Source: Malacoraja senta | Taxonomy: Eukaryota | Assembly: GCA_038087875.1 (NCBI GenBank) | Contig: CM075995.1 | Location: forward strand, 1 to 64,000 | DNA length: 64,000 nt | Direction: 5' to 3' | Part shown: positions 2,478 through 63,949 of the stretch, in pieces | How positions within the stretch are numbered: position 1 is the stretch's first letter | Layout: every line of letters starts with the position of its first letter | Position numbers and translations under genes: made by a program | The notes under the pieces: model-generated | What the model saw: the letters and a program-made list of their open reading frames with translations, nothing else | Databases searched by the model: none | Told to the model about the DNA's origin: nothing

Positions 2478-3690
2478 ATTTAGAATGGAGATGAGGAATT
2501 ACTTTCGCCAGATGGCGGTAAATCCCACATTTATTGCCACTGATGGCTGTGGAGGCCAAGAAATTGGGTATTTTAAAAAACGGAGATTGATACCCTCTTA
2601 ATTAGGAAGGTCGTCAAAGGTTACAGGGAAAAGGCAGGAGAATGGGGTTGAGAGGGAATAGTAGATTAGCCATGATTGAATGGCAATATGGACTTGATGG
2701 GCTGAATGGCATATTTCCACACCTGTGTCTTATGGTCTTAACTAGTTGACTCATTTCTGCAGAAAGATAATTCTGGGTTGGTATCTTTCAGTGTCTCAGG
2801 GCTCTTACTCAACATTTTCATTTATTTAAAAAATGACTAATAAAGTTGTAAGGGCCGGTGATTCACAGTGTGCATGCAAAAGCAAACACTCCTATTATTC
2901 TGAAGAACCAAGAAACTGCAGATGTTGCAAAATACAAAATGCCAAAGGAACTCATCAGGTCTGATATTGATACCTTTGGGCACAAGAGGATGAGGGGTGA
3001 TCTTATAGAGGTGTATAAGATCATGAAAAGAATAGATAGAATAAATGTACAGTCTTACACACAGTAGGGGGATCAGGAACTAGTGGACACAGATTTAAAG
3101 TGAAGGGGGAAAAATTTAATAGGAATCTGAGGGACAACGTTTATTTTACACAAAAGGAAGTAGGCGTATGGAACGAGCTGCTGAAGGTTGTTGAGGCGGG
3201 TACTATCACGTTTAAAGAACATTTAGACAGGTACATGGATAGGATAGGTTTCGAAGGATATGGGCCAAACACATGCAGGTGGGACTAGCGTAGATGGGGC
3301 ATGTTGGTCAGCGTATAGTAGATCCTCCCACTTCAATTTCTGCTTGTAAGCAGGGGGTAGAAGCGCAGCCAGCGATCAGATTTCCCAATGAGGCATCTGG
3401 GATTGGAACGGTATGTGTTTTTGATGTTTGTGCAGCAGTGATCAAGAGTGTTTGTTCATAAATTCTTATGTTCTAGGAGCAGAATTAGGCTATTCGGCCC
3501 ATTGTCTACTTCCATTCAATCATGGCTGATCTATCTTTCCCTCACAACCCCATTCTCCTGCCTTCTTCTCGATCAATAAGGGAGAGCAGGAGAATGGGAT
3601 TGAGAGAGAAACATTGATCAGCCATGATTGAATGGCGGAGTAGACTTGATGGGCCAAATGGCCTAATTCTGCTCCTATAACTTATGAATT
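2478..3690. mobile_element. Cluster of short CR1 3'-end fragments in both orientations
   Basis: RMRGDLIEVYKIM and FTQKEVGVWNEL motifs; repeated CR1 3' UTR sequence (gccatgattgaatggc). Confidence 0.75.
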
Positions 3691-3720
3691 TATGAATTAT
3701 GAACTATTGCACTTAAATAA

Positions 3721-4914: not shown

Positions 4915-5120
4915 AAGAACACAAAGTGCTGGAGTAACCCAGTGGGTCAGACAGCATCTCCAGAGATCAAGGATTGATGATGTTTCGGGTTGAAATCCAT
5001 CTTTAAAATGATAGTATAAGAGTAAGATAGACGCTAAAAGCTGGAGTAACTCAGCAGGACAGGGGGCATCTCTGGAGAGAAGGAATGGGAGATGTTTCGG
5101 GTCAAGACCATTCTTCAGAT
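4915..5120 (-). mobile_element. Two tandem Penelope pLTR-derived units
   Basis: Two gctggagtaac..cagcatct..gtttcgggt units; the second ends ttcttcag (hammerhead-like core on the - strand). Confidence 0.65.
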
Positions 5121-5919: not shown

Positions 5920-8830
5920 ATGGACAATAGGTGCTGGAGAAGGCCATTCGGCCCTTCGAGCCAGCACCGCCATTCACTGGGATCATGGCTAATCATCCAC
6001 AATCAGTATCCCGTTCCTGCTTTCTCCCCATATTCCCTGACTCCGCTATCTTTAAGAGATTTATCTAACTCTCCCTTGAACGCATCCAGGGAATTGGCCT
6101 CCACTGCCTTCTGAGGCAGAGAATGCCACAGATTCACAACCCTCTGTGTGAAAAAGTTTTTCCTCATCTCCGTTCTAAATGACGTACCCCTTATTTTTAA
6201 ACTGCCTCCAACGTGTCCAAACGCTTAATAATCTTATATGTTTCAATAAGATATCCTCTCATCCTTCTTCATTCCAGAGTATACAAGCCCAGCCGCTCCA
6301 TTCTATCAACATATGACAGTCCTGCCATCCCGGGAATTAACCTTGTGAACCTACGCTGCACTCCCTCAATAGCAAGAATGTCCTTCCTCAAATTTGGAGA
6401 CCAAAACTGCACACAATACTCCAGGTGTGGTCTCACTAGGGCCCTGTACAACTGCAGAAGGACCTCTTTGCTCCTATACTCAACTCCTCTTGTTATGAAG
6501 GCCAACATGCCATTTGCTTTCTTCACTGCCTGCTGTACCTGCATGCTTACTTTCAGTGACTGATGAACAAGGACCCCCAGATCTCATTGTACTTCCCCTT
6601 TTCCCAACTTGACACCATTCAGATAATAGTCGGCCTTCCTATTTTGCCACCAAAGTGGATAACCTCACATTTATCCACATTAAACTGCATCTACCATGCA
6701 TTTGCCCACCACCCAACCTGTCCAAGTCACCCTGCATCCTCCTCACAGTTCACACTGCCACCCAGCTTTGTGTCATCTGCAAATTTGCTAAGGTTACTTT
6801 TAATCCCTTCATCTAAATTATTTATTAGCTGTGGTCCCAGCACCGAGCCTTGCAGTACCTCACTAGTCACTGCCTGCCATTCTGAAAGGGACCCGTTAAT
6901 CCCTACTCTTTGTTTCCTGTCTGCCAACCAATTTTCTATCCATGGTAGTACCCAACCTCCAATACCATGTGCTCTAATTTTGCTCACTAATCGGACCTTA
7001 TCAAATGCTTTCTGAAAGTCCAGGTACACTACATCCACTGGCTCTCCCTTGTACATTTTCCTAGTTACATCCTCAAAAAATTCCAGAAGATTAGTCAAGC
7101 ATGATTTCCCCTTCGTAAATCCATGCTGACTCGGACCGATCCTGTTACTGCTACCCAAATGTGCCGCTATTTCATCTTTTATAATTAACTCCAGCATCTT
7201 CCCCACCACCGATGTCAGGCTAACTGGCCTATAATTCCGTTTTCTCTCTCCCGCCTTTCTAAAAAAGTGGGATATTAGCTACCCTTCAATCCACAGGAAC
7301 TGATCCTGAATCTATAGAACATTGGAAAATGATCACCAATGTGTCCACGACTCCTTAAGTACCCTGGGATGCAGACCCTCAGTCCCATCAGTCTACCCAA
7401 CACCATTTCCTGGCAAATGTGAATTTCCTTCAGTTCCTCTGTCACCCTAGATCCTCTGGCCACTAGTACATCAGGGAGATTGTTTGTGTCTTCCTTAGTG
7501 CAAAGTACCTGTTCAACTCGTCTGCCATTCCCTTGTTCCCCATAATAAATTCACCTGTTTCAGTCTTCAAAGGTCCAACTATGGTCTGAAATAATGTTTT
7601 CCTCTTCACATACCTAAAGAAGCTTTTACTATCCTCCTTTATATTATTGTCTTACTTACCTTCGTACCTCATCTTTTCTCCCTTTATTGCCTTTTTAGTT
7701 ATCTTCTGTTGCTCTTTAAAAGTTACCCAATCCTTTGGCTTCCCGCTCATCTTTGCTATGTTATACTTCTCTTTTATTTTTATACTGTCCCTGACTTCCC
7801 TTGTCAGCCACGGTCTCCCATTACTCCCCTTGGAATCTCCCTTCCTCTTTGGAATGAACTGATCCTGCACCTTCTGAATTATTCCCAGAAATACCTGCCA
7901 TTGTTGTTCCACTGTTATCCCTGCGAGGGTATCTTTCCAGTCAACTTTGGCCAGCTCCTCCCTCATGGCTCCATAGTCCCCTTTGTTGAATTGTAATACT
8001 GACACTTCCGATTTTCCCTTCTCCCTCTCAAATTGTAGATTAAAACATCATATTATGGTCACTACCTCCGAATGGCTCCTTTACCTCGAGTTCCCTTATC
8101 AAATCAGGTTCATCACACGACACTAAATCCAGAATTGCCTGCTCCCTGGTAGGCTCCAGTACAAGCTGCTCTAAGAATCCATCATGGAGGCACTCCACAA
8201 ACTCCTTCATGGGGTCCAGTACCAACCTGATTTTCCCAGTCTACCTGCATGTTGAAATCTCCCATAACAACCGTAGCATTACCTTCGCGACATGCCAATT
8301 TTAACTCTTGATTCAACTTGCACCCTATATCCAGGCACTGTTTGGGGCCTGTAGATAACTCCCATTAGAGTCTTTTTATCCTTACAATTCCTCAGTTCTA
8401 TCCATACTGACTCTACATCGCCTGATTCAACGTCAACCCTCGCAAGGGCCTGAATTTCATTCCTCACCAACAGAGCTACCCCACCCCCTCTGCCACCTGT
8501 CTGTCTTTTCGATAGGACGTATACCCTTGAATATTCAGTTCCCAGCCCTGGTCCGCTTGCAGCCCCGTCTCTGTAATTCCCACAACATCATACTTGCCAA
8601 TTCCTAATCAAGCTCACCCACTTTATTTCTTATACTTTGCGCATTCATATACAACAATTTAGCTTTGGTATTCACCTCCCCTCTCACACTATTGACCCTG
8701 ACCTCACTCTCTTATCCCGTCTCGAACTTTGCTTCCCATTAATTCGGGAGTCTTTTGTAGCTTTTCCTGTACAGACCCCCTTTAATTCCATCTTTATACT
8801 CCCAATTTGTCAACCTCTCCCCCCCCTTTA
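5920..8830 (-). mobile_element. CR1 LINE ORF2 (APE endonuclease and RT) plus 3' UTR, degenerate; continues at 14739
   Basis: [82 protein letters not shown]. Confidence 0.92.
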
Positions 8831-9033
8831 GTAGGCCCCCCTCGGTCATGACTGACCATGGGTGATGCATCTGGTCGGATGCAAGTCTGTGCGATGTCAT
8901 ATGGAGGACAGGCTGTTGCCCATGCAGCACGTCCCCCCTCTCCACGTCGCTGATCGATCGAAGGGAACAGCAGGGGAGTTACAGTTTGGCACCAGCGCCG
9001 TCGCAGGAGCTGCCAGAGCGAGGATGTAGACAA

Positions 9034-9666
9034 GGAAGATCTTTCCTGGTCCGAGAACAATGATGCCATTATTAAGAAAGCACATCAGCGCCTCTACTTC
9101 CTGAGAAGATTACGGAGAGTCGGTTTGTCAAGGAGGACTCTCTCTAACTTCTACAGGTGCACAGTAGAGAGCATGCTGACCGGTTGCATCGTGGCTTGGT
9201 TTGGCAACTTGAGTGCCCTGGAGAGGAAAAGACTACAAAAAGTAGTAAACACTGCCCAGTCCATCATCGGCTCTGACCTCCCTTCCATCGAGGGGATCTA
9301 CCACAGTCGCTGCCTCAAAAATGCTGGCAGCATCATCAAGGACCCACACCATCCTGGCCACACACTCATCTCCCTACTACCTTCAGGTAGAAGGTACAGG
9401 AGCCTGAAGACTGCAACGACCAGGTTCAGGAACAGCTACTTCCCCACAGCCATCAGGCTATTAAACCTGGCTCGGACATAACACTGAACTTTACTAGCCA
9501 ATACTGTTATTTGCACTTTATCAGTATATTGACCATTGTGTATATATTTATAGAATGCCTTGTAGTAAATGCCTACTATGTTCTGTTGTGCTCAAGCAAA
9601 GCAAGAATTTCATTGTCCTACCAGGGACACATGACAATAAACTCACTTGACTTGACTTGACTTGAC
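9034..9666 (+). mobile_element. Rex1/Babar LINE 3' end, 5'-truncated (copy 1)
   Basis: KKAHQRLYFLRRL, FYRCTVESMLTGCIVAWFG, LLPSGRRYRSLK..RFRNSYFPTAIRLLN; aataaa plus (cttga)n tail. Confidence 0.9.
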
Positions 9667-9811
9667 AACGACGAACTGCCTTAGGGGCTCCGACTCCGGA
9701 TTTTCTTGAGGTTTACTCTTGGAGCCTTTTCAATGACTGGAGGTTTTAAATTAGTTTCCCTCTCCTAGATGGACTGCCTTCTCAGGCTGACGAGCCCCAT
9801 CTGCACGAGAC
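9036..9811 (+). repeat. 776-bp direct repeat, copy 1 (copy 2 at 13906-14681)
   Basis: Identical 118-aa ORFs at an offset of 4870 bp; only one mismatch seen (9794 g vs 14664 a). Confidence 0.95.
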
Positions 9812-12800
9812 AGCTAAAAATGTATAATTCTGACATTACCTTCCTACAAGAAACACACCTAAAACCTCAGGACCAAGTTAGGCTGAGGGCGAAATGGATA
9901 GGTCAAACATACCACTCTTCATTCACTTCAAAATCTAGAGGCACGTCAATTATCATAAGAAAAGGTATACCATTTAAAGCAAAGAATATTATAACAGATA
10001 TAGAAGGGAGATACCTAATAGTTAATGGAGAAATCCATGACACTCCACTTACTTTGGTAAATATATATGCCCCTAACTTTGATAACCCCCACTTTTTCAA
10101 TAAAATCTTCAATATAATTGCAGAGTCAAACTATCAAAATGTTATAATAGGCGGAGACTTTAACTGTGTTTTAGACCCGTACTTAGATAAATCAAGTCAA
10201 AAACAGAGAGGGAATATGAAATCGAAAACTGGGGAACTCCTCAATACCTACATAAACAACACTAATATAGCAGATATTTGGAGAATTGTGAATCCAACTG
10301 GCAGGGAATATTCGTTTTACTCAATGGTACATAAGACATACTCACGTATAGACTACTTTCTGCTGGATACAAAATTAATCCCCCAAACATCTAATGCAAT
10401 ATATCATACAAATTCAATTTCAGACCATTCTCCACTAACTTTCTTTTTAAAACTGGAAGGATTGTCTAAGAATAATTCATTCTGGAGATTTAACTCTCAA
10501 ATTTTAAAAGATCCACAAGCGAGTATATATTTAAAAGAACAAGTGGAGGTCTTTTTTCAAACAAATGATACTTCAGATATATCGCCTACTTTACTTTGGG
10601 AATCTTTTAAAGCATACATTAGGGGTATTATAATTTCATATCAAGCTTTTCAAAATAAAAAGAATAAGAATGAACAAAGACAGTTAGAAGAACTTATTAG
10701 ACAAATGGATATAGATAATGCTAAAGATCCATCAATAGATAAACATAATAAAATAATAATTTTAAAATTTAAATTAAATAAATTATTATCTGCCAAACTT
10801 ATAAGACTTTTTCAAATTACAAAACAAGAGCACTTTGAATTTGGGGATAAACCGCATAAACTTTTGGCTCGCCAGCTAAAAAAACGAGAAAAGGAACATA
10901 CTATACCAAAGATCAAATCAGATAAAGGGGAATTATTAACAACACCGAAGGATATTAATAAAAGATTTGCGCAATTTTACGAGAATTTGTATACATCTAA
11001 AACGATAATTGATTCCAATAATATCACAAAGTTCTTGGATACCTGTAATCTTCCAAAGTTAGAGCTGAAGGAACAAGAGGAACTGGGTGCACAAATCTCA
11101 ATTAAGGAATTAGAAGATACAATAAACTCACTAAAAAATGGAAAAACACCAGGCCCTGATGGATTTACTAATGAATTTTATAAAAACTTTTATGATAAAA
11201 TAATACCAAGATTACAAAAAATGTACCAATACGCTTTTAAAAAACGAATACTACCTGATACATTAGCGGAATCAACGATTACATTAATACCTAAGAAAAA
11301 TAAGGATTTAGAAGAACCTGGCTCATATAGAGCTATAGCATTGTTAAACACAGATCAAAAAATATTAGCGAAAACATTAGCCAGAAGATTAAGTAAATAC
11401 ATTAGTAAATTAATAAACCCAGATCAGACAGGGTTTATCCCTAAGAGATACTCTTCTAATAATATGAGACGTCTACTCAACATAATGCACTCACACAAAT
11501 CTGAAGATCAAGAATTATCAATTATTTCGCTGGATGCTGAAAAAGCATTTGATCAAGTAGAATGGAATTATATGGATAAAGTATTACAAAAATTTCAACT
11601 GGGAGAGAATTTTATTTTATGGATTAAGTTACTATATAACAAACCTACAGCTAGAATACTTACTAATAACATATTATCCTCGAAATTTCAACTATCAAGG
11701 GGAAATAGACAAGGATGCTCATTATCACCACAGCTGTTTGCTCTCATTATTGAACCGCTAGCAGAAAAAATTAGAATACACCCTGATATTCATGGATATA
11801 ATACTAAAGACTCATATAATAAAATATCTTTATACGCGGATGATATATTATTGTATATTACAAAACCTCAAATCACTATACCAAATATATTAAATTTAAT
11901 TGAAGACTTCGGATCTTTTTCTGGATATAGAATAAATTGGAATAAAAGTGAAATTATGTCAATAAAACCGAAAGATTCAACACATCTTTTAAAATTCCCT
12001 TTTAAAATAGCTACAGAAAAATTTAAATATTTGGGAATCGAAATTACCTTGGTATGCTCAGGGCAAATTTTGACCCCCTACTTAATAAACTGAATACATT
12101 AATTAAATTCTGGAAAACGCTTCCGATGTCTTTAATAGGCCGAATAAACGCAATAAAAATGATCTTTTTACCACAAATTTTATACCTATTTCAATCAATT
12201 CCTATATACTTACCTAAGAAGTTTTTTAAAAAACTCGACTCAGATATCACTAATTTTATATGGGACTATAAATCACATAGAATACAAAAAACCCATCTGA
12301 ATAAATCTAAAGTATTGGGGGGTCTAGCACTACCCAATTTTATGTATTATTATTGGTCAGTAAATATTAAAAACATGATTCAACTGATGGATAACTCCGC
12401 CCAGCAAGTAGACTGGATTGTAATGGAGAAAGAGGATTGCTCCTCTAGAAACATTGGAGCGATCCTCCTTTCTCCAATGAAATTGAATAACATAAACTAT
12501 AATAAGAACCCAATTATTCATAGTACAATCCGTATTTGGAAACAAATAAAACAAAATTTAAAATTAAGAAACTTATCACTTTTATTACCTATAGTCAATA
12601 ACCCTTCGTTTAGTCCTTCTATTATAGATAAAGCTTATACACAATGGGATAGACTAGGAATTAAAACGCTTGGTGACTTGTATGAAACTGGAAAATTACT
12701 TTCATTTCAACAATTACAAATAAAATATAAACTCGGAAATAATCAATATTTTAAATACTTTCAAATATGCGACTATTTGAAAAAATATATAAAAGATCAT

Positions 12801-13907
12801 CATAATAACCCAGCAGATGTACTGGACGAGGCAATGCAGATAAAAGCGGAATCAGCAAACTTAATATCATATTTGTACAATATTATCTTAAATGTACAAA
12901 TACCATCTACGGAGGGTATCAGAAGAGACTGGGAACAAGAGTTAGCTATTGAAATTTCAAAGGAAAGTTGGAATGAATACTTATTAAAAGTACATAAATG
13001 CTCGATTAATGTAAGACACACATTAATACAATTTAAAATTTTACATAGATTATATTATTCGAAAACTAAAATTCATAAAATTTTCCCAAACGTATCATCT
13101 ATTTGTGATAAATGTCAATCCCAAGAAGCAACTATAGCGCACTCATTTGTCTTCTGTACAAAAATTCAAAAATTTTGGAATGAAATTTTTGAAATCTTTA
13201 CAAAGTTATTTAAAACAAGACTGATACCCAAAGCAGAATGGATTATCTTCGGAATAACGGAAGATGATCCAGAACTAAATGTGTTTCAAAAGAAATTAAT
13301 GGATTATGGGTTAATAACTGGAAAAAAGCTAATTCTAAAATTTTGGAAGAAGGCTCCAATACCAACTATAAATATGTGGATTTCAAATATGTTTGAAACA
13401 CTACACCTTGAAGAGATAAGACTCCTCCTAGCAGGTAAACCAGATCACTTCCACCTGACGTGGTCTGCATTTATAGAATTATTACAAACATAGGGTGCAA
13501 AAGTACTTTAAAAAAATAAAAAATTGAGGTCGGGTAAGGGGGGATGATAGTTGAAGAGTTGGTATGTCCTATTTACGTGATGCTCAAAAAAAAACATTTG
13601 TTTTTCTTTTTTTCTCTCTCTCTTTTCTTTTCTTAGGGCCTATTTCTTAACTCTTTTTCTTTTTGTTTTTAATTTCGCTCTCATAGGGTCTTCGTCCTTT
13701 TTTGTTGTTACATTTTCTACACTTTTCTACACTTGCACTTTTTCCTTCACTTTCTTCTCTCTTTCAATCTTTTCTTTCTTTAGTGTAAAAAAAATAAATA
13801 AAGGGAGTACATTAATTGTAAGAAGATATAAATGACGAGTATTAATGTATGTGGCTGTGATGTAATGTACTTCTAATAAATAAAAATTTAAAAAAAAAAA
13901 AAAAAAA
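9812..13907 (+). mobile_element. L1-clade LINE, 5'-truncated within ORF2, near-intact (APE, RT, CCHC), with poly(A) tail
   Basis: ORFs 9769-12093 and 12054-13493: LQETH, NIYAPN, GGDFN, SRIDY, SDHS, GPDG, LDAEKAFD, RQGCSLSP, YADD, CDKC..H..C. One frameshift near 12050; aataaa at about 13876 and poly(A) at 13890-13907. Confidence 0.95.
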
Positions 13908-14681
13908 GATCTTTCCTGGTCCGAGAACAATGATGCCATTATTAAGAAAGCACATCAGCGCCTCTACTTCCTGAGAAGATTACGGAGAGTCGGTTTGTCA
14001 AGGAGGACTCTCTCTAACTTCTACAGGTGCACAGTAGAGAGCATGCTGACCGGTTGCATCGTGGCTTGGTTTGGCAACTTGAGTGCCCTGGAGAGGAAAA
14101 GACTACAAAAAGTAGTAAACACTGCCCAGTCCATCATCGGCTCTGACCTCCCTTCCATCGAGGGGATCTACCACAGTCGCTGCCTCAAAAATGCTGGCAG
14201 CATCATCAAGGACCCACACCATCCTGGCCACACACTCATCTCCCTACTACCTTCAGGTAGAAGGTACAGGAGCCTGAAGACTGCAACGACCAGGTTCAGG
14301 AACAGCTACTTCCCCACAGCCATCAGGCTATTAAACCTGGCTCGGACATAACACTGAACTTTACTAGCCAATACTGTTATTTGCACTTTATCAGTATATT
14401 GACCATTGTGTATATATTTATAGAATGCCTTGTAGTAAATGCCTACTATGTTCTGTTGTGCTCAAGCAAAGCAAGAATTTCATTGTCCTACCAGGGACAC
14501 ATGACAATAAACTCACTTGACTTGACTTGACTTGACAACGACGAACTGCCTTAGGGGCTCCGACTCCGGATTTTCTTGAGGTTTACTCTTGGAGCCTTTT
14601 CAATGACTGGAGGTTTTAAATTAGTTTCCCTCTCCTAGATGGACTGCCTTCTCAGGCTGACGAACCCCATCTGCACGAGAC
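13906..14681 (+). repeat. 776-bp direct repeat, copy 2 (includes the duplicated Rex1 3' end to 14536)
   Basis: Matches 9036-9811. Confidence 0.95.
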
Positions 14682-14738
14682 TCGTGGGAGCGGGAGCATC
14701 TACCTTCCCATGCAGATCTATAGCACCTGCCCACTGCC

Positions 14739-15550
14739 CTATTTAGTTTAAACCCACATGTGTAGCACTAACATACCTGCCTGCCAGAACGTTGGTCCCC
14801 CTCCAGTTAAGGTGTAACCCGTCCCTTTTGTACAGGTCACCCCTACCCCAGAAGAGATCCCATGTGGTCTATAAATCTAAATCCCTGCTCCCTGCACCAG
14901 TCCCCCAGCCACATATTCAGATCCCCCATCTCCCTGTTCCTGCCCTCACTAGCACGAGGTACAGGATGTAATTCAGAGATAATCACCCTAGAACTCCTGC
15001 TTTTCAGTCTTCTTCCTAACTCTCTAAACACGTGTTGCAGAACCTTCTTCCTCTTCTTCCCGACGTCGTATGTGCGCACGTGCACAACTACTGCCAGCTG
15101 TTCACCTTCCCTCTCGAGGATGTTCTGAAGTCGATTTGTGATATCTTGAACCCTGGCATAAGGGAGGCAACAGACCATCCTCGAGTCTTGCCTGCCACCA
15201 CAGAATCTCCAGTCCGCACCTCAGACAATGGAGTCACCCACCACTATAGCTCTGCCGATGTCAGTCTGGCCGGTCGAGTCTCATCGCTACGATTGGAGCC
15301 ACCGACCTGTCAGCTGCTTGGACTGGAAATGTCGTCTGCCCCGACAGCTCCAAAAAGGGTGTACCTGTTTTCATTTGGCACAGCCACTGGGGTCTCCTGC
15401 ACTCCACGGTTACTCCCCTTTCTCCCAGTTACCCACCTTCACTCTTTCTTTATCCTTGGCGTGACAACCTCACTGTAGGTCCTGTTCATGAAACTCTCGT
15501 TTTTCCGGATGGCCCGGAGGTCATCCAGCTGCTTCTTCAGTTCCCCAATA
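14739..15550 (-). mobile_element. CR1 ORF1 region (SGNH esterase-like), continuation of the 5920-8830 element
   Basis: VCCLP..ARVQDI..VVVHV.T.D..SEL.PVPRASEGRNR..LNMWL..WCREQGFRF; the sequence rejoins the CR1 at tatttagtttaaacc. Confidence 0.85.
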
Positions 15551-16039
15551 CTATAAACAATAAGCCAATAGATATTATGGAAATAAATGTGACAAATATG
15601 AACAAATCTTCATTAAGAGTCATGGTTTAAGGATTAATTTGCATCTCTTAGTGAGTGTATGAAACATGTTCACACAAGATATAATTTTACTTGACCGCTT
15701 AAAAGAAGCTGGCTGAATAATCAGTTACAATTAGGAAGCCAGATTTCCTAGTCAACTTAGAAAGGATGTCCAAACATTGGGGAATCTGTCGTGAAGAAGG
15801 GTCTCAAAATAAAACGTCGTCTATTCCTTCTATCCAGAGATGCTGCCTGTCCTGCTGAGCTACTCCAGCATTTTGTGCCTATCTGTAATGAAGAGAGCTC
15901 TGTGGAGTATGACAGGGCTGAAGCATCAGTTGAGGGTATATCAAGGCATTGATTATCAAGTCAAGTCTTTGTGGTGGGGGTGATCACTTTTGGCTGATGA
16001 AGGTTAATGTGGTAGTGTGAGGTACTGTGACTATCAGTG

Positions 16040-18142: not shown

Positions 18143-18418
18143 TAGTTTTAGTTAAGTTTAGAGATACAGAGCAGAACAGGCCCTTTGGCTCACCGAGAAC
18201 CGCGCTGACCAACGATCCCTGTACACTAACACTATCCTGCGCACACTAGGGGAAATTTACAATTCTACCAAGCCAATTAACCTACAAACCTGTATGTCTT
18301 TGGAGTGTGGGAAGAAACCAGAGATCCCAGAAGAAAACCTACGCAGGTCACGGGGAGAACAGCACCTGTTGTCAGGATCGAACCCGAGTTTCTGTCGCTG
18401 TAAGACAGCAACTCTGTA
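18143..18418 (-). mobile_element. tRNA-derived SINE
   Basis: B box on the - strand (ggatcgaacc at about 18375); same body as neighbouring copies. Confidence 0.8.
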
Positions 18419-18524
18419 ACTGTGGACAACTTTTACTGGCTCAGCAAGGACAGTACTGTAAAAGGAACTACAGTGCCATCTGTTGGCAAGCTGACTACTA
18501 CATTCAAACAAAAGTGAAAATGTG

Positions 18525-18832
18525 GGGCAGCATAGTGGCGCAGTGATAGATTTGCTGCCTTCCAGCACCAGAGACCCGGGTTTGATCCGGACTACGGGTG
18601 CTGTCTGTACAGAGTTTACACGTTCTCCCTGTGAATGTGTGGGTTTTCTCTGGGTCCTCCGGTTCCCTCCCACACTCCGAAGACATGCTGGTTTGTAGAT
18701 TCATTGGCTTCACTAAAATTGTAAATTGTCCCTAGTGTGTAGGATAGTTCTAGTGTACAGGGCGATCGCTGGTTGGCATGGACTCGGTTGACTGAAGGGC
18801 CTGTTTCCGCACTGTATCTCTAAAGTCTAAAG
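18525..18832 (+). mobile_element. tRNA-derived SINE, full-length
   Basis: A box tggcgcagtga, B box ggtttgatcc, body, CR1-like 3' end gaagggcctgtttcc and (ctaaagt)n tail. Confidence 0.85.
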
Positions 18833-20889: not shown

Positions 20890-21282
20890 CGGGGTGCGAA
20901 GTCACAGGTGGGGCTAGTATATAAGCCCATCATAGTAGGTAGGAAGGTACAGCAGGTGCTAGTTTATACTGAAGATAGACACAAAATGCTGGAGTAACTC
21001 ATCGGGTCAGGCAGCATCTCTGAGGAAAAGGAACGGTGACGTTTCGGCTCGGAACCCTTCTTCAGACTGAAAGATAGAGAAAGCCAGAACAAACAGGGCT
21101 GGAAACAGAAGACCTCAGGAAGGGTGGTCCATAATGGCTCTTTATAGTGTCTCTCTCTAGCCCATATAGGTATACTGCAGATTAGAGTATAAATTAAAAA
21201 ACAGAGGAATGGATGATCACAACATGGAAGAATTTCAAATTACATTTGTGACTGTGACTTGTAAATTAGACTTGTAAAAAGG

Positions 21283-21845: not shown

Positions 21846-23088
21846 GATAAATGAATGAATACGTTTATTGGCCAAGTATTCACATACAAGGAATTTGCCT
21901 TGGTGCTCCGCCCACAAGTGACGACGACATACAGTGACAGCTAGGAATGGCACATAAAACATTAAATATTAATAATAAAACATTATTGATTAAACATGTG
22001 AATTAAATAAAATACCAGAGCAAAAGGAGGCTACAGATTTTTGGTTATTGAGTAGAGCTACTACTCGTGGAAAAAAGCTGTTTTTATGTCTGGCTGTGCA
22101 GCTTTGACAGTCCGGAGTCGCCTTCCAGAGGGAAGTGATTCAATTAGTTTGTGGCCAGGGTGAGAGGGGTCAGAGATGATCTTACCCGCTCGCTTCCTGG
22201 CCCTTGCAGTGTACAGCTCATCAATGGAGGGAAGGTTGCAGACAATAACCTTCTCAGCTGATCGGACGATTCGCTGCAGCCTTCGGATGCCGTGCTTGGT
22301 GGCTGAGCCAAACCAGACCATGATGGAGAAGGTGAGGACAGACTCTACGATGGCTGTATACAATTGGACCATCATAGCCTTTGGCAGATTGTGCTTCCTC
22401 AGCTGCCGCAGGAAGTACATCCTCTGTTGTGCCTTTTTGACTGTGGGTCGATGTTCTGTTGTGCTGAAGCAAAGCAAGAATTTCATTGTCCTATCAGGGA
22501 CACATGACAATAAACTCACTTGAACTTGTACTTGAACTTGGTAGCCCCCCCATTTAAGGTCCTTGGAGATGATGGTTCCCAGGAACTTAAAAGACTCCAC
22601 AGATGCGACTGTGGTGTTGTTGATGGTGAGTGGGTGGAGGGGAGGGGGAGCTCTCCTAAAGTCTACTATCAATTTCACTGTCTTAAGAGCATTGGTTGTT
22701 AACCTTAAGGACAGGTTGTTGCGATGGCACCAGGCCACCAGCTGTGTCACTTCCTGTCTGTAGGCAGATTCCTCCCCATCCTGGATCAGTCCAATCAGGG
22801 TTGTGTCGTCCGTAAACTTAAGAAGCTTGACAGAGGAGTCAGTGGAGGTGCAGTCATTGGTGTAGAGAGAGTAGAGGATAGGGGAGAGTACGCAGCCTTG
22901 CGGTGCTCCTATGCTGAGGGTTTGCGGGTCCGAGATGTGCTTTCCCAGCCTCACATGCTGCTTCCTGTCTGTCAGGAAGCTGGTGATCCAACGACAGGGG
23001 GGTTCAGGCACAGTCAACTCTGAAAGTTTGGAGTGTAGTAGCTCTGGCACAATGGTGTTGAATGCAGAGCAAAAATCTGTCTCAAGAC
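21846..23088 (-). mobile_element. Rex1/Babar LINE (RT and C-terminus) carrying a nested about 90-bp tail insertion
   Basis: SAFNTI, GAPQGCVLSPILYSLYTND, FTDDTT, KKAQQRMYFLR, LPSGRR; (ttca)n tail at about 21850. Confidence 0.9.
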
Positions 23089-23849: not shown

Positions 23850-26800
23850 GAGTCATAGAATGATACTGCATAGAAAAAGGTATTTCGGCCTAACTTGCCA
23901 ACACCGGCCAATATGACCCAGCTACACGAGTCCCACCTGCCTGTGTTTGGCCAATATCCCTCTAGACCTGTCCTCTCCATGTACCTGTCTAACTGTTTCT
24001 TAAACGTTGGGATAGTCCCTGCCTCAACTACCTACTGTGGCAACTTGTTCCATACACTCACCACCCTTTGTGTGAAAAAGTTACCCATTAGATTCCTATT
24101 AAATCTATTAAAAATAACATCCTCGTAAATCTTCTCTGTACCCTTTCCAGTTTGACTTTTCCAATAACATGGTGCCCGAACTGAACACAATACACTAAAT
24201 GCAGCCTCACCAACGTCTTATAGAACTGCAGCATGACCTCCCTACTTCTATACTAAATACTCTGATGAAGGCCAATGTGCCAAAAGCCTTTTTGACCACC
24301 CTATCTACCTGCGACTCCACCTTCAAGGAACCATGCACCTGCACTCCTAGATCCGTCTGGTCTACAACACTCCCCAGAGTCCTGCCATTCACTGTGTAGG
24401 TCCAACCCATGTTTGACTTTCCAAAATGCAACACCTTACATCTCTCTGTATTAAATTCCATCAACCATTCCTCAGCCCACCTGCCCAACTGATCAAGATC
24501 CTGCAGCAATTTTTTCAACCATCTTCACCATCTGCAAACTATCTACTTTTGTATCATCTGCAAACTTGCTAACATTGCCATGTTTCTTCTTCTTCTTCTT
24601 AAGCCCTTTGCTCCACTAGGGAGCATAGGCCATTGACAAATGTCCTCCACCTCACTCGGTTATTGGCAATTCTTTCAAGATCTCTCCATTAGAGCCCACT
24701 CTCAGACATTTCTGTCTGGACACCTCTTCTCCAGCTGTTCCTGTGGCAACCTCTTTTCCTTTTTCCTCGGGGTTTCCATTTCAGGGCTTGCTGGGTGATG
24801 TTTGTGGCAAGTTTCCTGAGGGTGCGTCCAATCCAACTCCATTTTCTCCTTCGAATGTGTAAGTTAATGGGCTCCTGGCTTGTTCTTTTCCACAGATCCA
24901 CGTTGCTTACTTTGTCTCTCCACCAGATGTTAAGTATTCTCCTAAGGCATTTGTTAATGAATATTTGCAGCCTGTATGTAGTGTGTTTTATTGTTTTCCA
25001 TGTCTCTGATTCATACAGCATCACCTATTTCACATTTGAGTTAAAGATGTGTATTTTGGTGTTGATTGAGATGTGTTTTGAGCTCCAGATCTTCCTGAGC
25101 ATGTTAAACACCACCCTAGCCTTATTGATTCTACTTTTTATGTCTACCTCTGCCCCTCCGGTGATGTCCACAACACTGCCTATGTATGTGAATGTGTCTA
25201 CCTCCTCTAGAGCAGTGCTGTGCACAAGGATAGGGTTGCTGGTTTTGGAGTGGATCCTCATCACCTGTGTCTTTGCTCTATTGGGTGCAAGACCAAGTTT
25301 TGTTGCAGCTTGTGAGAGTCTATCGGTCATCTCCTGCATTTGTATCTGTGTGTGTGAAAGGAGAGCTATGTCTTCTGCAAAGTCAGATCACCTAGCTGCT
25401 CCCACATTGTCTACTGAATTCCATTTATTTTCCCTTACAATACAATACTGTTTATTGTCATTTGTTGTTTCATTGTCTTTCGTTGTTTCCATCATGATCC
25501 AGTCAATTGCCAGGAGGAACAGGAATGGTGACAATAGACATCCCTGCTTGACGCCCGTCCTGACACTAAAGCTCTGGGAGAGCTGGCCTGCATGCATAAC
25601 TTTGCATGAGGTTTCATCATACGAGTTTTTGATTAAGTTTATGATCTTGGTGGGAATTCCGTAGTGGTCCATTAGGCGCCATAGTGTTGCCCTGTCTAAG
25701 CTGTCAAACGCTTTCTCAAAGTCGATGAAGTTAATGTACACGGACATGTTCCATTCAACAGATTGCTCAATGATGATGCATAATGTTGCTATGTGATCTG
25801 TGCATGAGCGATCCTTCCTGAATCCTGCTTGCTGGTCCCGTAGCCTCTTGTCTACAGCTTCCTGAAGACGGTTGAGGATGAACTGGTTGAGAATTTTACT
25901 GGGTACAGAAAGTAGGGTGATCCCTCGGTAGTTGTCACATTTTCTTAAGTCATCTTTTTTTGGCAGTTTCACAATGTATCCCTCTGCCCATTCTGTGGGT
26001 GTATTTTCCCACAGAAGCCATAGCGCATGTCTGAAGAGGAGTCTATATCTACTTTCAGGGCTTCAGTTGGAATATTGTCAGGGCCAACAGCCTTGCCAGT
26101 TTTCTGTTGGTTGATTGCAGCCTTTATTTCTGATTTTGTTGTCTGTCACATTTAATTTGTAGTGGTATCCTGGCTTTGGGTCTGTATAGCCGGTGGTGGC
26201 CTGTTTAGGACTTCCTCAAAATGTTCTACCTATCTTTCGAGCTGCATCTCCTGGGTTGAAAGCAGTTCTTGTCTGTAATTGGTTTATTACTCTGGAGATA
26301 TGTCCCGGACAATTTCCTTGTGATGGTATATAACTCCCTCATGATCCTTTGGGTCGCCACAATTTCTGCCTCTTTGGCTAGCCTCTCCACCTGTGTTCTC
26401 TTGTCCCTCCTGATGTTCTTTCGCATTTCTTTGTGGCATCTGTTGTACTCCTTTTGGGCTAAAGCCTTTTCAGCCCTTGTTCTTGAGTTGTTCACTTTCT
26501 CCTTTAACTTTTTCCTCTGTTGGATTATGGATTATTATTGCCATGTATGTTCTCATCCAAAACATTGATATAGATAAACAGTAACAGGTCCAGCACCGAA
26601 CCCTGAGGCAACCACCAATCACAGTCCTCCAGTCCAAGGAGCAACCTTCCACCATCACCCTCTGCTTCCTTCCATGAAGCCAATTTTCTATCCATTCAGT
26701 TATCCCACCTTGGATCCCATGCGACCTAACCTGCCAGAGCAGCCTACCAAATGGAACCTTGTTGAATGCTTTGCTTAAGTCCATGTATACAACAATTACA

Positions 26801-33354: not shown

Positions 33355-33471
33355 TGTTTAAGAAGTAACTGCAGATGCTGAAGAAGGTTCTCCACCCGAA
33401 ACGTCACCTATTTCCTTCGCTCCATAGATGCAGCCTCACCCGCTGCGTTTCTCCAGCATTTTTGTCTACCT
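33355..33471 (+). mobile_element. Penelope pLTR-derived mini-insertion with hammerhead-like core
   Basis: 11-bp TSD ttaatatttaa (33344-33354 and 33472-33482); ctgaagaaggttctccacccgaaacgtc. Confidence 0.7.
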
Positions 33472-34239
33472 TTAATATTTAACGACACAGTGGTGCTGGT
33501 TTCCGACGGGCACGGTGACGGATACACCACACATCTCTGTCCTCCATTCAGCTGGCAAACTCCTCTTTTGTCTCTAGAATACTGAGAAATATTACTGCCA
33601 TTTGCCTTTAATGCTCATATCTATCCATTTATGTTACTTCTTAAACAAAATCATTAATGGAGTTATGTCTGTACTTTATTATCTATTTAATTTCAATATA
33701 TTTAGCTACTAAATCTTTCAGATGGGTTTTAGAATCCTTCAAATCGTTGCTCTATAATTGCTATTGCTCAAATGTTGGTCTACTCTTACCTCAATGGTTC
33801 TGGTCAACTCTTACCTTAAATCCTTTCCCATAACTGCTCCACTTGTATGTGAACATTTTACAGATTGAATTAAGGAAAGAGTTTAGATATAACCTTTTAT
33901 TGGATGTAACCATTTTACTCCTGTTTCTTGCCAATTAATTTAAAGATTATTCTGTTATTTCCTCATCTTACATGAGTCTGGCAAAGATTATAAATCTAGG
34001 GAGGGTTGGACCATGTTGGGATCCGAGTGCTTATGAACATGAACATAACCGAATAGAAAAACCAATACAATCAACAAACGTGGGGTTCCTGGTGACCGGA
34101 ATTTGTTGTGAAGAAGGAGTTTTGAAAGAGTTCCACTTTACAAGTGTGCAAAGTGGGGAATTTTTTAATAAAACCCATGGCATGATTTTTGACAGAAAAC
34201 AAAATGCCTTATTTTACTTGAGTCTGAAGAAGGGTCCCT

Positions 34240-35800: not shown

Positions 35801-36205
35801 AGAGAAGAGAGAGATAGGTAGGGGTAAAGAGAAAGTGAGGGGGGTAGAGAGAGAGTGTGAGGGGGAGGGGGGGGGTAGAGAGAGAGCTAGGTAGGGGTAG
35901 AGAGAGAGGGGTAGAGAGTGAGTGAGGGCGAGAGAGATAGGTAGTGAGTGAGGGGGTAGAGAGAGCTAGGTAAGGGGTAAAGAGAGAGTGAGGGGGGTAG
36001 AGAGAGAGCTAGGTAAGGGGTAAAGAGAGAGTGAGGGGGGTAGAGAGAGTGTGAGGGGGGGGGGTAGCGAGAGAGTGTGAGGGGGGGTAGAGAGAGAGCT
36101 AGGTAGGGGTGGAGAGTGAGTGAGGGCTAAGAGAGAGAGGGGGGTAGAGAGTGAGTGAGAGGGTAGAGAGAGAGAGGTGTAGTGGGAGAGAGAATTGGAG
36201 AATGG
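35795..36205 (+). repeat. GA-rich minisatellite (ggggtagagagag..)n in DEK intron 1
   Basis: Nearly C-free + strand with repeated G4-G9 runs. Confidence 0.9.
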
Positions 36206-40190: not shown

Positions 40191-41096
40191 AGACAAAGGT
40201 AGACACAAAATGCTGGAGTAACTCAGCGGGTCAGGCAGCATCTCTGGAGAGAAGGAATGGGTGACGCTTCGGGTCGAGACCCTTCTTCAGACGTTCTTTA
40301 AACTTGACCTGTAAGATTAGATCCTTAGCCCAAATTGTAAGGAGTGCAGATCTACTAAGGAGACAAAATGACTAAATGTTTTTTTAAATCTGTGTTTTAT
40401 AACAGCACTAACCACTTAATTAATTAATACAAACTGATGATTAATGCTGTTTTGAAGGAAATTCTTGTTATAGCATCTTTTGCAACATAAAATTCCAAAG
40501 CACTTAAAGCATTTAAGTTTGAACTGTAGGAGCTCAGCAGGCAATTTCTGCACAGTGAGGTTCCACAAACAGCAATAAGATAATTACCAATATTTCCTGG
40601 AGGCATGACTAGTGATCAAGGCACGAGAACTTTCCTGTGTTTCTTGGGAATGGTACTTGTTTTTTGCAGCCACCTGCAATTGGAATTGTTTGAAGCAAAT
40701 AAAGACAATGTGTTGCAAGTGCACAACAATGCCTGACAAAAAGCAGAATTAACACTTCGGTTGATGACATTTCATCAGAACTAAAACTTAAAATGTGTTT
40801 AATTTCTGTATTGCAGAGATGGCAGGGGGTGCAGAGAAGAAAAAGAATATCAGTGTTAGAGATCGAGAGACTGCACACAGTTGTTTGAGTGCTGATTGAG
40901 AGCAGGTGGTAAATACAAAATAATCACGGTTGATCTGACAGGAGGAAATAAAAATAAGATCTTGAGTTAGATTTTTTTTTAAAGCAGATATTGATTCAAT
41001 CTGAATGCACTTTTATTAAAATGCTCATATCATCTACCTAACTAATGTGTATTAATTTGAAATTGGTAGATATCCTGTCCACACGTGTATGCAAAG

Positions 41097-41621: not shown

Positions 41622-42268
41622 GTAAACATATCAGTTTAGTAATTTATAGTTGCTAATATTTTAATGTTATAATGGATTTATCTTTTCTATGAGGAAACCA
41701 GGAAAATGAAGAACCGGAGTGGTTTGAATCAATTCCTTAGAATTCATAATGGATTATGGTCTGTGGAAGGAACAAGGATGATTTACTTTCAAATGTTGTC
41801 ACTGGGTAAAGCATGTGCCATGCCATAAGGAGACTACAATATTCCATAATATTTTGATTGTTAAAAATTGAATTTTAAAGGAAAAAAAGTTGATGTACAA
41901 TAATGCCAAACACATACTTTTAAGTATCTGAGGAAACAATGTATCATGAAAGCCACCAGTTTAGATCGAAGGCAGACACAAAATGGAAGGTAGACACTCA
42001 CTGAAGAAGGTAGACTTCTTCAGTCTGAAGAAGTGGCTCGACCCGAAAGGTCTCCCGTTCCTTCTCTCCAGAGATGCAGCCTGTTACTCCAGCATTTTGT
42101 GTCCACCTTCGATTTAAACCAGCATCTGCAGTTCTTTCTTACACGCGTAATGAGCATGTTGTACAACCAAATGTGGTACAAATCCCAAACTGAGCCACAT
42201 ACAGTGTTCATGTAAGCATTTCAAGAGGAGTTATTGGATAGCATAAAAAGGATCCCCCATGATATTTA

Positions 42269-43106
42269 AATGGAATTCAGTGAACAATGTGGGAGCAGCT
42301 AGATGATCTCGAATTTGCAGACGACATAGCTCTCCTTTCACACACATACAGATACAAATGCAGGAGAAGACGGACAGACTCTCACAAGCTGCAACAAAAC
42401 TTGGTCTTACACCCAATACAGCAAAGACACAGGTGATGAGGATCCACTCCAAAACCAGCAACCCTATCCTTATGCACAGCACTGCTCTAGAGGAGGTAAA
42501 AACATTCACATACCTAGGCAGTGTTGTGGACATCACCGGAGGGGCAGAGGCAGACATAAAAAGTAGAATCAATAAGGCTAGGGTGGTGTTTAACATGCTC
42601 AGGAAGATCTGGAACTCAAAACACATCTCAATCAACACCAAAATATGCATCTTTAACTCAAATGTGGAACAGGTGATGCTGTATGGATCAGAAACATGGA
42701 AAACATCAAAACACACAACAAACAGGCTGCAAACATTCATTAATACCTGCCTTAGGAGAATACTTAACATCTGGTGGAGAGACAAAGTAAGCAATCTGTG
42801 GAAAAGAACAAGACAGGAGCCCATTGACTTACAAATTCGAAGGAGAAAATGGAGTTGGATTGGACACACCCTCAGGAAACCTGCCACAAACATCACCCCG
42901 GCAAGCCCTGAAATGGAAACCCCAAGAAAAAGGAAAATAAGTCGCCACAGGAACAGCTGGAGAAGAGGTGGCCAGACAGAGATGTCTGAGAGTGGGCTCA
43001 ACTGGGCAGATCTCGAAAGAACTGCCAACAACCGAGTGAGGTAGAGGATGTTTGTTAATGGCCTATGTACGCTCCCCAGAGGAGCAAAGGATTTAAGAAG
43101 AAGAAG
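42269..43106 (+). mobile_element. RTE LINE 3' part, same family as 24584-26536, with 8-bp TSD
   Basis: TSD gatattta at 42261-42268 and 43107-43114; 228-aa ORF; (aag)n tail. Confidence 0.92.
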
Positions 43107-48240: not shown

Positions 48241-48729
48241 ATCCAATTAATTTAATATCTGCCATGGAAAATATTGGAAGTTCTAAAAAATATGACAGCA
48301 GGTCACATAACAAATCATGGTAATCGGTCACCATGCTTTATTTTTAAAGGGAAATCCTGTTTGATCAATTCTTTGCCAAAGTGGTTTGTGGAAAAAGCAG
48401 TCAGTAGATGAACTATAATTTCCAGAAGGCCTGGAATGTGAGCCAGGGTTAGGGGTTATCCAGTGGACTACCAGGGAGTGTGGCTAGAGTCAGGAATCCG
48501 GAGTGTGTCTCCATACACGAGTCAAGTGTGTGGCCAGAGCCAAAGTTAAGGAATGAATACCAAGGATCAGGAATGTGGCTGGGTTTGCAGCTGAAGCTGT
48601 CTCTTTCCTGCTCAATTTCTACTAGCTTGATTTGCAGGTAAATTTATGCTAGGTAATGTGCAAGAAAATTTAAGTAAATCTTTATCCCAGCACCAACAAC
48701 ATCCCAAGCAGATTATATTGGAACTTTGA

Positions 48730-49530
48730 GATAGGCACAAAATGCTGGGGTAACTCAGCGAGTCAGGCAGCATCTCGATAGAAGGGATGGGTGACGTTTT
48801 GGGTCAAGACCTTTCTTTGGACTGAATCAGTGGAGAGGGAGATACAGAGATAAGGAAATGTAAGGTGTGAAAATGAGACAAGGGATGAAGATCAAGTAAA
48901 ATGTAGAATAGCTTGTTAGCTAGGAGAAGGTAACAACAAAGCAAACAGATAAAATGTAAACAAGGATAGTCAGACTAGTCGAAGAACTGGGAAGGGGAGG
49001 GATGGGGAGAGAGAGCAAAGGTTACTTGAAGTTAGAGAAATCAATATTCATACCGCTGGGCTGTAAGCTACCCAAGCGAAATATGAGGTGTTGTTCCTCC
49101 AATTTGCACTGGGACTCACTCTGACAATGGAGGAGGCCCAGGACAGAAAAGTCAATGTGGGAATGGGAGGGGGGAGTTAAAGTGTTTAGCAACCGGGAGG
49201 TCAGGTAGGTTTAGGTGGACTGAGCGGGGGTGTTCAGTGAAACGAACTGCGCTTGGTCTCGTCGTATATAGGAGTCCACACGTGGATGAGGTTGGAGGAG
49301 GTACAAATGAACCTCTGCCTCGCGTGAAAAGACTGTCGGGGTCCTTGGACAGAGTCGAAGGGGGAGGTATAGGGACATGTGTTGCATCTCCTGCGGTTGC
49401 AGGGGAAAGTACTTGGGGAGGGGGTGGGAAAGGACATGTTAACCAGGGAGTTGCGGATGAAACGGTCTATGCGGAAAGCAAAAGAGGTGGAGATGTGGCT
49501 AGTGGCGGGATCACATTGGAGGAACTTATT
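48730..49530 (-). mobile_element. Penelope-like element 3' region (pre-GIY-YIG linker, GIY-YIG remnant, pLTR)
   Basis: CNRRRCNTCP..GPRQSF..F.CTSSNLI..Y.ETKR; pLTR with hammerhead-like remnant at about 48793. Confidence 0.8.
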
Positions 49531-54475: not shown

Positions 54476-55877
54476 GTAAGTACTTGATTAACTACTTATG
54501 AGATTAACAAATAACTAGTTAACAGATGAGGGAGGGTGAAAGTTTTGGCTGGGTGTTTGGAAAAATTCCTTTGGTTTGTTTTACTCGTATGCTGTCCGTT
54601 CTAATTATTTGGTTAAGATCTATAGTTTTGTAAATCTGCAAAATTCAGTGCACTTCATGATGAGCAGTGCACTAAGAACAGCCCAGGGAGAAATGGTTGA
54701 GATTTCAGATGGAAACCATGCATTAGGACTCAAGATTTTTATTACTGTTGGAGATTTTTTTTTCAAATTTAAGTCGGAGAAAATGAAAATGTTGATCTAG
54801 CTAAGAACATTGTTTATGGGAACAGTTACACAAAATTGAGAATGAATGCTGTTAAGATGAAATGCTTACTGATCTCATCAGTTGCCTTTTTAAAAACCAC
54901 ATACATTTGAGGTCTGAAGAAGGGTCTCGACCTGAAACGTCACCTTCTCTCCACAGATGCTGCCTGCTCCGCTGAGTTACTCCAGCATTTTGTGTCTATA
55001 TATATTTGATGAATGTCATTTTAGAAGCCAATTATGCTGTAAATTTTCCATGTAACACATTTGGTAAGAAATATCACTATCTGCACAAAATTGTACTGCG
55101 TGAGATTGTAAACCTTTCCACTATCCTAATAATGTAGAAAACACACAATTGGAATCTACTTTCTAGGAAAGATCTTCCACTGAGGTGAAAAGTTGAAATC
55201 AAATTCATGACCTATATTTCTCGGGAGACAACATTGGAATATGGATGTAATTCACTCCTGGGGTTGCAGGGAGTTCTTGGCTCTAACTTTTATAATTAAA
55301 GATGAGATGACTTGCTGAAAAAGTTCTTGAAACAAATCTGAGCTTTTCTGTGCTTAGATATGCAGTAAGAATGGCAAATCTCACTTTTCTATTGTGAAAG
55401 GGAAGAGGAAGTGCTTGCAGTCTCAGCTGGTGAATGTTGCAAAAGATATTGGAATGAAGGAAGACAATTATTGATATTTTAAATCATGTTTTGACTCATT
55501 TGCCTAGTACCTAAATACATCCTTGTAACAACATCGTGACGAACAACGCATTTCTAATGCTGGTGTTCATTTTCTCACCCTGTAATCAAATTTTTCATGT
55601 GCAGTACGGTTTGTACGTCAATACAAGGGTGACCTGAGTGCAACCACTTCTGCTCATTAATCAGCCACGAGCTCCCCTGCACCGTGTCCTTCTGCTCCTT
55701 CCCACACACCAAAGCCTTCTCAAAATATTGAATATCTTCAGTTTTGCCCAATACAAAAAGGGAAGCTGAGGTGGGGTATAGCGTGTGCATTTGAGCAATT
55801 TTATAATAGAGCTAAAAGTATTGTGTTCAGTGACTTTTGTTTGAAACCTTGTATTTCATCTTGTTACTGTGTGTCAG

Positions 55878-61054: not shown

Positions 61055-62150
61055 AGACAAAGTGCTGAAGTAACTCACTGGGTCATGTAGCATCTCTGGA
61101 GAAAAGGAATTGGTGATGTTTCGGGTTAGAACTCTTCTTCAGACTGAAGGTGGGGGCGGTGTGGGTGAGAAAAGACCAATCAGGGCAGGTCACAAATGAC
61201 CTCAGGAAGGGCAGTGCCTGGTAGATTCATTGTTGGCGAGGGAAGGTGTGATCTTAAGAGAGAAACAATGTGGAGAACTGTGGATCTAGTAAAACTACTA
61301 GGGTGGGAGGGGAGTAAAAGTGGAAGTTACCTAAAATTAGATAATTCAGTGCTCATACCACTGGTTTGTAAACTACCCAAGCGAAATATGAGGTGCTGGT
61401 CCTCCAATTTATGTGTGGTCTCGCTGGCAATGGAGGTGGCCCAGGATAAAAAGGTAAGTGTGGGTAGACACAAAAAGCTGGATGGAGTAACTCAGCAGGT
61501 CAGACAGCATCTCTGACGAAAAGGAATAGGTGACGTTTCGGGTCGAGACCCCTCTTCAGACTGAGGTCAGGGTAGGAATGGGAAGGGTAGTTGAATTTGT
61601 TGGCAACCGGGAGATCCCACAGGCCTTGGCGAACCGAGCGTAAGTGTTCAGCAAAACAGTCGCCGAGTCTACATTTGGTCTCATCGATGTACAGGAAGGA
61701 GCCCACATCGGATGCAGTGAATGAGGTTAGAGGATGTACATGTGAACCGTTGTCTCACCTGAAAGGACTGTCGGTGTCCCTGAATGGAGTCGAGGGAGGA
61801 GATATAAGGATAGGTGTTGCATCTCCTGTGGTTGCAGGGTTAATTAAGTACCTGGGAGGCTGTGGTTTGGGTGGGAAGGGATGAGTGAACCAAAGAGTTG
61901 CAGAGGGAGCAGTCTGCATGGTGGAAATGGGAAGATATGATTAGTGGTGGGATTCCTTAGGAATTGACAGAAATGTCAGAGGATAATGTATTGGATGCGG
62001 AGGCTGGTGGGGTGAAAGGCGAAGACTAGGAACGCTATCCTTGTTGCTTCTTGGGGGGGTGAGAGGAGTGCGAGCACAACTACGAGACACACGTATGAGG
62101 GCCTTATCTATGACAGAAGTGGAGAACCCACATTTCCTGAAGAATGAGGA
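61055..62150 (-). mobile_element. Penelope-like element 3' region with GIY-YIG remnant and two pLTR units
   Basis: LYIDETKCRLGDCFAEHLRSV..PVANKFN; hammerhead-like cores at about 61116-61143 and 61533-61559. Confidence 0.8.
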
Positions 62151-63259: not shown

Positions 63260-63393
63260 TCTGAAGAAGGGTCTCGACCCGAAACGTCACCTACTCGTCT
63301 GTCTGAAGAAGAGTCTCGACCCGAAACGTCCTATTCCTTTTCTCCATAAGGTGCTGCCTCACCCGCTGAGTTTCTCCAGCATTTTTTGTCTAC
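63260..63393 (+). mobile_element. Penelope pLTR-derived unit with two tandem hammerhead-like cores
   Basis: Cores at 63261-63288 and 63303-63330; flanking direct repeat atttgttt(a/g)ctga at 63247-63259 and 63394-63406. Confidence 0.75.
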
Positions 63394-63949
63394 ATTTGTT
63401 TGCTGAAGACCTTTAACACTGCTACAGTTCAAGGGCAATTTTATGTGCTATGATGGGAGTATAGTAACATGGTTGATTGATTCTAGACTAAATACATGAA
63501 TGGTAGTATGTACATCTCAATCTTCATATGCCTAGAAAATGAAAGATAGCCTGATTTTAATTGTTAACCTCATTGTCTGGTTAACAAACATCACAAGTGA
63601 AAGGTTTTGTACGCTGAATCAAACTAATTTTACTTTATAGTTGATAGCAAGTTAAAATTATTTGGAATGTAGCAATTACGTGGGAGAACATTTTAAGTAA
63701 CTATAACAAAACTGGTAGCTGATTTCCATTTTTTTTTGGTATTAACTTTTTAATGTCCAGAGGCAACCAAATTGGTATTTCTTAAGCACATGGAGTTTGT
63801 CTATCTTGATGATAATAAAGCACAAGGAAGCATAAAAATGGGCAAGCTGATTTATTTAATAACTTCCATGAATAACTAGAAATTTCAACTGGAAATGTGC
63901 AAATACATTGAAAGAAACAAAGCAGCAATCCTGTGCTAAAACTACTTAC

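Follow-up and report, generated by a model that had tools for sequence, protein, structure and literature searches.

How did a single retrotransposon come to be framed by a duplication about fifty times as long as the usual L1 target duplication? The question is raised by a long interspersed nuclear element (LINE) of the L1 type in Malacoraja senta, which lies between two nearly identical direct repeats of 776 bp on contig CM075995.1 of assembly GCA_038087875.1. The analysis covered positions 1 to 64,000 of the forward strand of this contig, hereafter the window. According to our analysis, the arrangement is probably the product of a single L1 insertion that left a large target-site duplication (TSD), an outcome also described as L1-mediated tandem duplication. 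L1 elements are known to insert in this way on rare occasions, and the locus most likely adds a new case, probably an inherited one.

The left copy of the duplication (9036..9811, +) and the right copy (13906..14681, +) are identical at 775 of 776 bases. The sole mismatch, a G at 9794 against an A at 14664, agrees with the preliminary description of this locus, which had found the copies to be one base apart. Identity is sharply lost beyond each end of the repeat. In a self-BLAST of the window the two copies form the sole pair with more than 95% identity over more than 100 bp, the runner-up among long pairs reaching 91.5% over 847 bp. A chance origin of the pair is excluded, and the duplication is a real feature of the assembly, which is free of N throughout the 64 kb. 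No tandem array touching the locus was found in a tandem-repeat scan of the window. The left copy ends next to the first L1 base (9812), and the right copy starts inside the terminal A-run of the L1 and runs directly on into the remainder of a host repeat of about 400 bp at 14682. A direct repeat of target DNA longer than 100 bp touches both ends of the insert, and a single insertion is supported by the way in which the limits of the repeat fall, to the base, on the 5' cut of the L1 and on its tail. The duplicated segment consists of most of the 3' fragment of a second, Rex1-like LINE together with part of the ~400-bp repeat. This latter part had been given as 145 bp of non-Rex flank; it is indeed present, and its size comes to 143-148 bp depending on how a 5-bp target duplication of the Rex1-like element is counted.

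The insert itself (9812..13905, +) is a 5'-truncated element of about 4.1 kb, identified by domain and protein matches. Its ORF2 (second open reading frame) starts at a point corresponding to roughly residue 31-34 in human ORF2p, and its best clade match is human L1 ORF2p (7e-140, residues 34-774), compared with 4e-24 for R2. An APE-type endonuclease (Exo_endo_phos, 8e-13) followed by a reverse transcriptase (RT; RVT_1, 6e-40) is the order of the L1 clade. The same holds for the 3' end, which comprises a 3' untranslated region (UTR), a poly(A) signal at 13875-13884 and an A tail. The putative C-terminal zinc-knuckle region matches zf-RVT weakly, with an E value of 1.5e-4 and 22.8 bits, below the cut-off of 27.5. 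A single frameshift near 12045-12050 probably stems from a short deletion. Judged by these matches, the insert is an L1-type LINE closest to L1 ORF2p and a candidate for L1 proper, as opposed to Tx1. No second copy of the family was found in the 64-kb window, and when metagenome contigs were scanned for two exact patterns, one from the L1 3' end and one from the Rex1-like 5' cut, each returned 0 loci.

Other members of the families were compared using contigs from four of 22 matching public sequencing runs (X1, X15, X16 and X17). These contigs come mostly from other family copies, perhaps of other species, and the figures drawn from them rest on the 40 of 294 substitutions, 15 of 112 joints, 24 of 2770 loose ends and 32 of 141,391 pieces that were listed. 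The comparison reached position 13950, short of the right flank and the junction 14681|14682, and for X15 it excluded 13875-13950. At the L1 5' junction, other family copies match from 9811 and have coding (ORF2) sequence upstream of it (six contigs in X16 and a single record in both X1 and X17), so the junction carries a 1-base microhomology at 9811 (+). Microhomology is usual at truncated LINE 5' junctions (PMC4245944). At the 3' junction there is a run of 18 A (13890..13907, +), whose last two letters are common to the tail and the target start; these shared bases at 13906-13907 are likely the priming overlap. That the copies abut both the 5' truncation and the poly(A), as first described, is borne out, the final two A of the run fitting either side.

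Inspection of the flanks shows that the L1 is the innermost member of a nest of repeats. The Rex1-like 3' fragment (9035..9663, +) is 5'-truncated at 9035 and comprises an open C-terminal frame of 148 codons, a 3' UTR and a 5-mer tandem tail. Protein matches include PF09004 (6e-13) and, at 92%, the C-terminal part of P0002, an RT protein, and on this basis the fragment is the C-terminal end of a fish RT-bearing non-LTR (long terminal repeat) LINE with PF09004. We presume that it belongs to Rex1; the RT lies outside the fragment, and neither Rex1 nor Babar is named among the 120 protein matches listed. Family matches start at 9035 (two contigs, X1), and the 776-bp repeat begins 1 base inside the fragment, or 2 bases if 9034, which is accounted for by neither the target nor the Rex1-like family, is a subfamily variant. 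The distance of 2-3 nt originally proposed was therefore close, although slightly too large. Before 9560 (9533-9560), many Rex1-like contigs carry a different 3' UTR, and the present one may represent one of several subfamilies or a local change. A 90-bp piece at 22451-22540 (+) is 94% like the Rex1-like 3' end and lies beside an older related coding remnant (22070-22441, -).

Around the Rex1-like fragment lies the ~400-bp repeat, a non-coding multi-copy sequence recognized by contig matches and now in three pieces (8833-9033, 9669-9811 and 14682-14741; span 8833..14741). Copies of it without the Rex insert are represented by contigs that join 9028 to 9664 (12 in X15, 14 in X16). Because five letters at these joints fit either side, the Rex1-like insertion can be assigned a 5-bp target duplication (9029..9033, second copy 9664-9668, +). 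The ~400-bp repeat, which we take to be RTE-like, is in turn closed by a 6-bp target duplication (8827-8832 / 14742-14747). The whole nest interrupts an old LINE on the minus strand (6200..15220, -; domain matches), with an esterase-like ORF1 at 14843-15220 (OSK, 8e-6, below its cut-off) and endonuclease and RT remnants at about 6200-8640 (RVT_1, 2e-16). We assume from its domain order that this LINE is CR1-like. If the L1 and one copy of the 776-bp repeat are taken out, the ~400-bp repeat closes with its 6-bp duplication and the ORF1-ORF2 order of the CR1-like element is restored. Since the host repeat closes with its own duplication inside an ordered element, a clean nest results and, judging from the window alone, the site before insertion was intact. 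The product, its junction bases and the order of nesting can thus be read off directly.

This anatomy bears on two further readings, a 3' transduction and a mobile unit of LTR-like form composed of repeat, L1 and repeat, both of which we consider extremely improbable. Only the outward shape recalls them, with direct repeats round an RT gene and extra DNA past the L1 tail. The preliminary description had named 3' transduction as the finding that would overturn a TSD. Transduction fails because the poly(A) precedes the second copy and none comes after it; neither a second poly(A) nor a TSD stands behind the right copy, where the host repeat simply continues and closes with its 6-bp duplication. 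Furthermore, other copies of the L1 have ORF2 sequence upstream of 9811, and other copies of the host repeat are without the Rex insert, as is expected of neither a transduced segment nor a mobile unit.

We posit instead that one L1 insertion produced the large TSD in the following way. The allele before the L1 would already have carried the Rex1-like fragment. The bottom strand would have been nicked first at 9035|9036 (to 9038), and the exposed end and the L1 poly(A) would have paired over two bases, priming a cDNA of about 4.1 kb whose synthesis halted early in ORF2. An upstream 3' end, located 776 bases downstream on the top strand, would then have captured the cDNA via the 1-base microhomology, and fill-in would have duplicated the 776 bases. 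Three sources are conceivable for the distant end: a distant second nick, replication starting at the upstream end, and breakage of the sister chromatid. The nick positions and this source are what we infer, and the sequence alone fits all three sources. By eye, no AA is present in 9770-9811, the 42 bases leading up to the 5' junction, while 9036-9037 gives AA within an 8-base purine run (9032-9039); since only the latter offers AA for pairing with the poly(A), 9035|9036 is a likelier position for the first nick than one near 9811. A distant second-strand event, or giant TSD, had been among the options offered for this locus from the start. It is the best supported of them, and the anatomy given for it was right.

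The ages of the nested elements fit this order. Divergences were measured to the longest of the contigs listed and are rough, since these are other family copies. They amount to 7.6% for the CR1-like host (33/433, two contigs in X1), some 10% for the ~400-bp repeat (X15 records 9-11), 1.7% (5/291, X1) and 4.3% (20/470, X17) for the Rex1-like fragment, and 1.2% (26/2106, X1) and 0.9% (30/3320, X17) for the L1. On these sequence comparisons they appear to agree with the order of nesting. The two 776-bp copies are 0.13% apart (95% range 0.003-0.72%), from which about 2.6 private changes (0.07-14.7) would be expected in the L1. At least three near-private L1 bases (10543, 12951 and 13022) occur among the 40 of 294 substitution rows listed, so that the ages of the L1 and of the duplication seem to agree. 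The Rex base at 9322 is common to both copies and differs in more than 99% of the contig depth; the base at 9202 is likewise in both copies and differs in 95-97% of the depth. That both copies carry the rare base at 9322 suggests that the Rex fragment had changed before it was duplicated, and the two bases together mildly favour a Rex insertion older than the duplication.

The same final sequence would result from two steps, in which an L1 with an ordinary short TSD inserted first and a later break at its tail was repaired by copying upstream DNA close by, from 9036 up to the TSD, as a repair-mediated duplication of proximal DNA. Repair copies come mostly from less than 5 kb away (824 of 1136 in the accessible part of PMC2671141), and the donor here lies 4.9 kb away. 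We nevertheless regard this as improbable: two events are needed, the first of them at a site where the 42 bases preceding 9812 hold no AA, and the private changes of the L1 do not exceed what the age of the duplication allows.

One L1 insertion with a large TSD has published parallels, taken here from the accessible parts of each report. Underlying the preliminary description was the premise that L1 offered no precedent for such lengths. This was too strong, since TSDs longer than 100 bp have been published for HeLa cells, for cells deficient in nucleotide excision repair (NER) and for a fish LINE. They account for at most about 10% of L1 insertions in HeLa and for 57-91% in NER-deficient lines, and the human L1 rows include TSDs of 700, 769, 771 and 863 bp, those of 769 and 771 bp from repair-deficient cells (PMC5223499). 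The engineered human L1 of Servant et al. (PMC5223499) resembles our case in that a 5'-truncated, polyadenylated L1 lies between duplications of hundreds of bases, and a distant second nick was proposed there too. It differs in that those insertions arose de novo in HeLa or NER-deficient lines, whereas ours belongs to an endogenous family in a genome assembly. Zebrafish ZfL2-2 produced a TSD of 1228 bp in one of 25 insertions in wild-type DT40 chicken cells (PMC2666801). It is likewise a fish LINE leaving a duplication of comparable size, although of the L2 clade, in a foreign host cell line and not inherited. L1-bridged tandem duplications are known from tumours and L1-induced cells, where those of 1-10 kb were termed large TSDs and explained by replication that starts at the upstream end (PMC7058536; bioRxiv 10.1101/2024.12.14.628481). 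There, too, the L1 bridges the duplication junction, but the events are somatic, human and 1 kb to megabases in size. Inherited HERV-K insertions with TSDs of 111 and 250 bp (PMC5488345) are retroelements with duplications far beyond the normal; these are shorter than ours and arise by an integrase mechanism. Our literature search, which had partial coverage and excluded supplements, found no inherited or cartilaginous-fish LINE with a TSD of this length.

Several points weigh against one L1 insertion with a large TSD. In the accessible part of PMC4805530, inherited human L1 TSDs are nearly all shorter than 25 bp, and large TSDs are called a peculiarity of cell culture that is scarce among inherited insertions. 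The nick site is plausible but not canonical, in line with what had been suspected: counted by eye, the four bases of the cleaved strand speak in its favour, as 11 of the 80 human insertion sites in Tables 1-4 of PMC5223499 have them too, while the base beyond the nick is present in four of 80 and occurs together with the 4-mer in none of them. This comparison uses human L1 insertions, whose preferences a fish L1 may not share. No other copy of the L1 family with flanks that show its normal TSD or target was found. Among the contigs listed, which are short, none runs across any of the four junctions. Finally, just 1 base separates the nick from the 5' cut of the Rex1-like fragment, and this has to be taken as chance. 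A random nick would fall within 3 bases of some repeat boundary in at least 1.5% of cases (138 self-BLAST boundaries), and far less often near a young 5' end.

The proximity of the nick to the Rex1-like cut is what a coupled insertion would explain, in which the Rex1-like element and the L1 entered together as one event. In this version, the 3' end of the Rex cDNA, still unsealed and shortened by one or two bases, would have primed on the L1 poly(A). Top-strand synthesis would then have continued along the Rex cDNA and some 145 bases into the right flank before catching the end of the L1 cDNA. If so, an inherited trace would survive of one retrotransposon taking over the integration intermediate of another. 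The base step cut at the nick is an unusual one, and both elements are young (Rex 1.7%, L1 0.9-1.2% from the listed contigs). In addition, a 10-base word over the Rex 5' junction (9027-9036, including 9034) recurs in the L1 RT region at 11706-11715, as it would after a templated jump. However, a spanning word of at least 10 bases was found at 4.7% of 8000 random window positions, which is not significant, the test itself being post hoc. Base 9035 fits the Rex family yet is not in the right copy, the near-private Rex bases that both copies carry (9322 and perhaps 9202) suggest an older Rex insertion, and two different LINE particles would be required at one site and one time. Of the coupling envisaged in the preliminary description, the close spacing stands; the 1-base coincidence and the 10-base word are weak hints, and we consider coupling unlikely.

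The missing junction-crossing contigs would also suit an assembly artefact, that is, a true L1 whose actual TSD is short, beside a spurious duplication created by a haplotype or contig join at a repeat boundary. The repeat begins at such a boundary, where assembly graphs branch, and the single difference in 776 bases could be a heterozygous site. Against this, the 64 kb contain neither N nor gap, and an assembler could have joined the poly(A) to 9036 only through a real molecule or an extended overlap, the actual overlap being 2 bases. An artefact would further require the loss of the true 3' junction, and 9770-9811 has no AA for a short-TSD site; the 5' junction also shows the microhomology of genuine truncation. 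On this anatomy an artefact is distinctly unlikely.

The window contains further repeats apart from the nest. An inverted pair at 24589-25427 and 42267-43106 (847 bp, 91.5%) overlaps, with its first member, a minus-strand RT-like frame at 25160-25999. Two segments, 18157-18824 (70%) and 3455-3696 (83%), match their own reverse complement in the manner of miniature inverted-repeat transposable elements. A repeat of about 95 bp, resembling short interspersed nuclear elements by size, is present in at least ten copies at 75-89% identity (2048-2142, 5024-5119, 15792-15884, 20972-21070, 33378-33473, 40195-40292, 48729-48817, 54912-54998, 61463-61564 and 63298-63399). A degenerate, purine-rich tandem array with periods of 14-43 occupies 35871-36192.

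The duplication described here is a mutational scar that implies no function, and the case is one of a published mechanism at a single locus in nested repeats with no evident host effect. Searches for TSDs have commonly been confined to short lengths, as in a genome survey of TSDs of 5-30 bp (PMC2912911) and in a study defining them as 5-25 bp (PMC12016303, both as given in the accessible parts). With standard TSD callers capped at about 25-30 bp, events with large TSDs may therefore be undercounted. The large-TSD pathway copies hundreds of bases, and the L1 could later be looped out through recombination between the copies. Most known large TSDs come from cell lines and tumours; an inherited case would, if confirmed, show that the pathway also operates in the normal germline.

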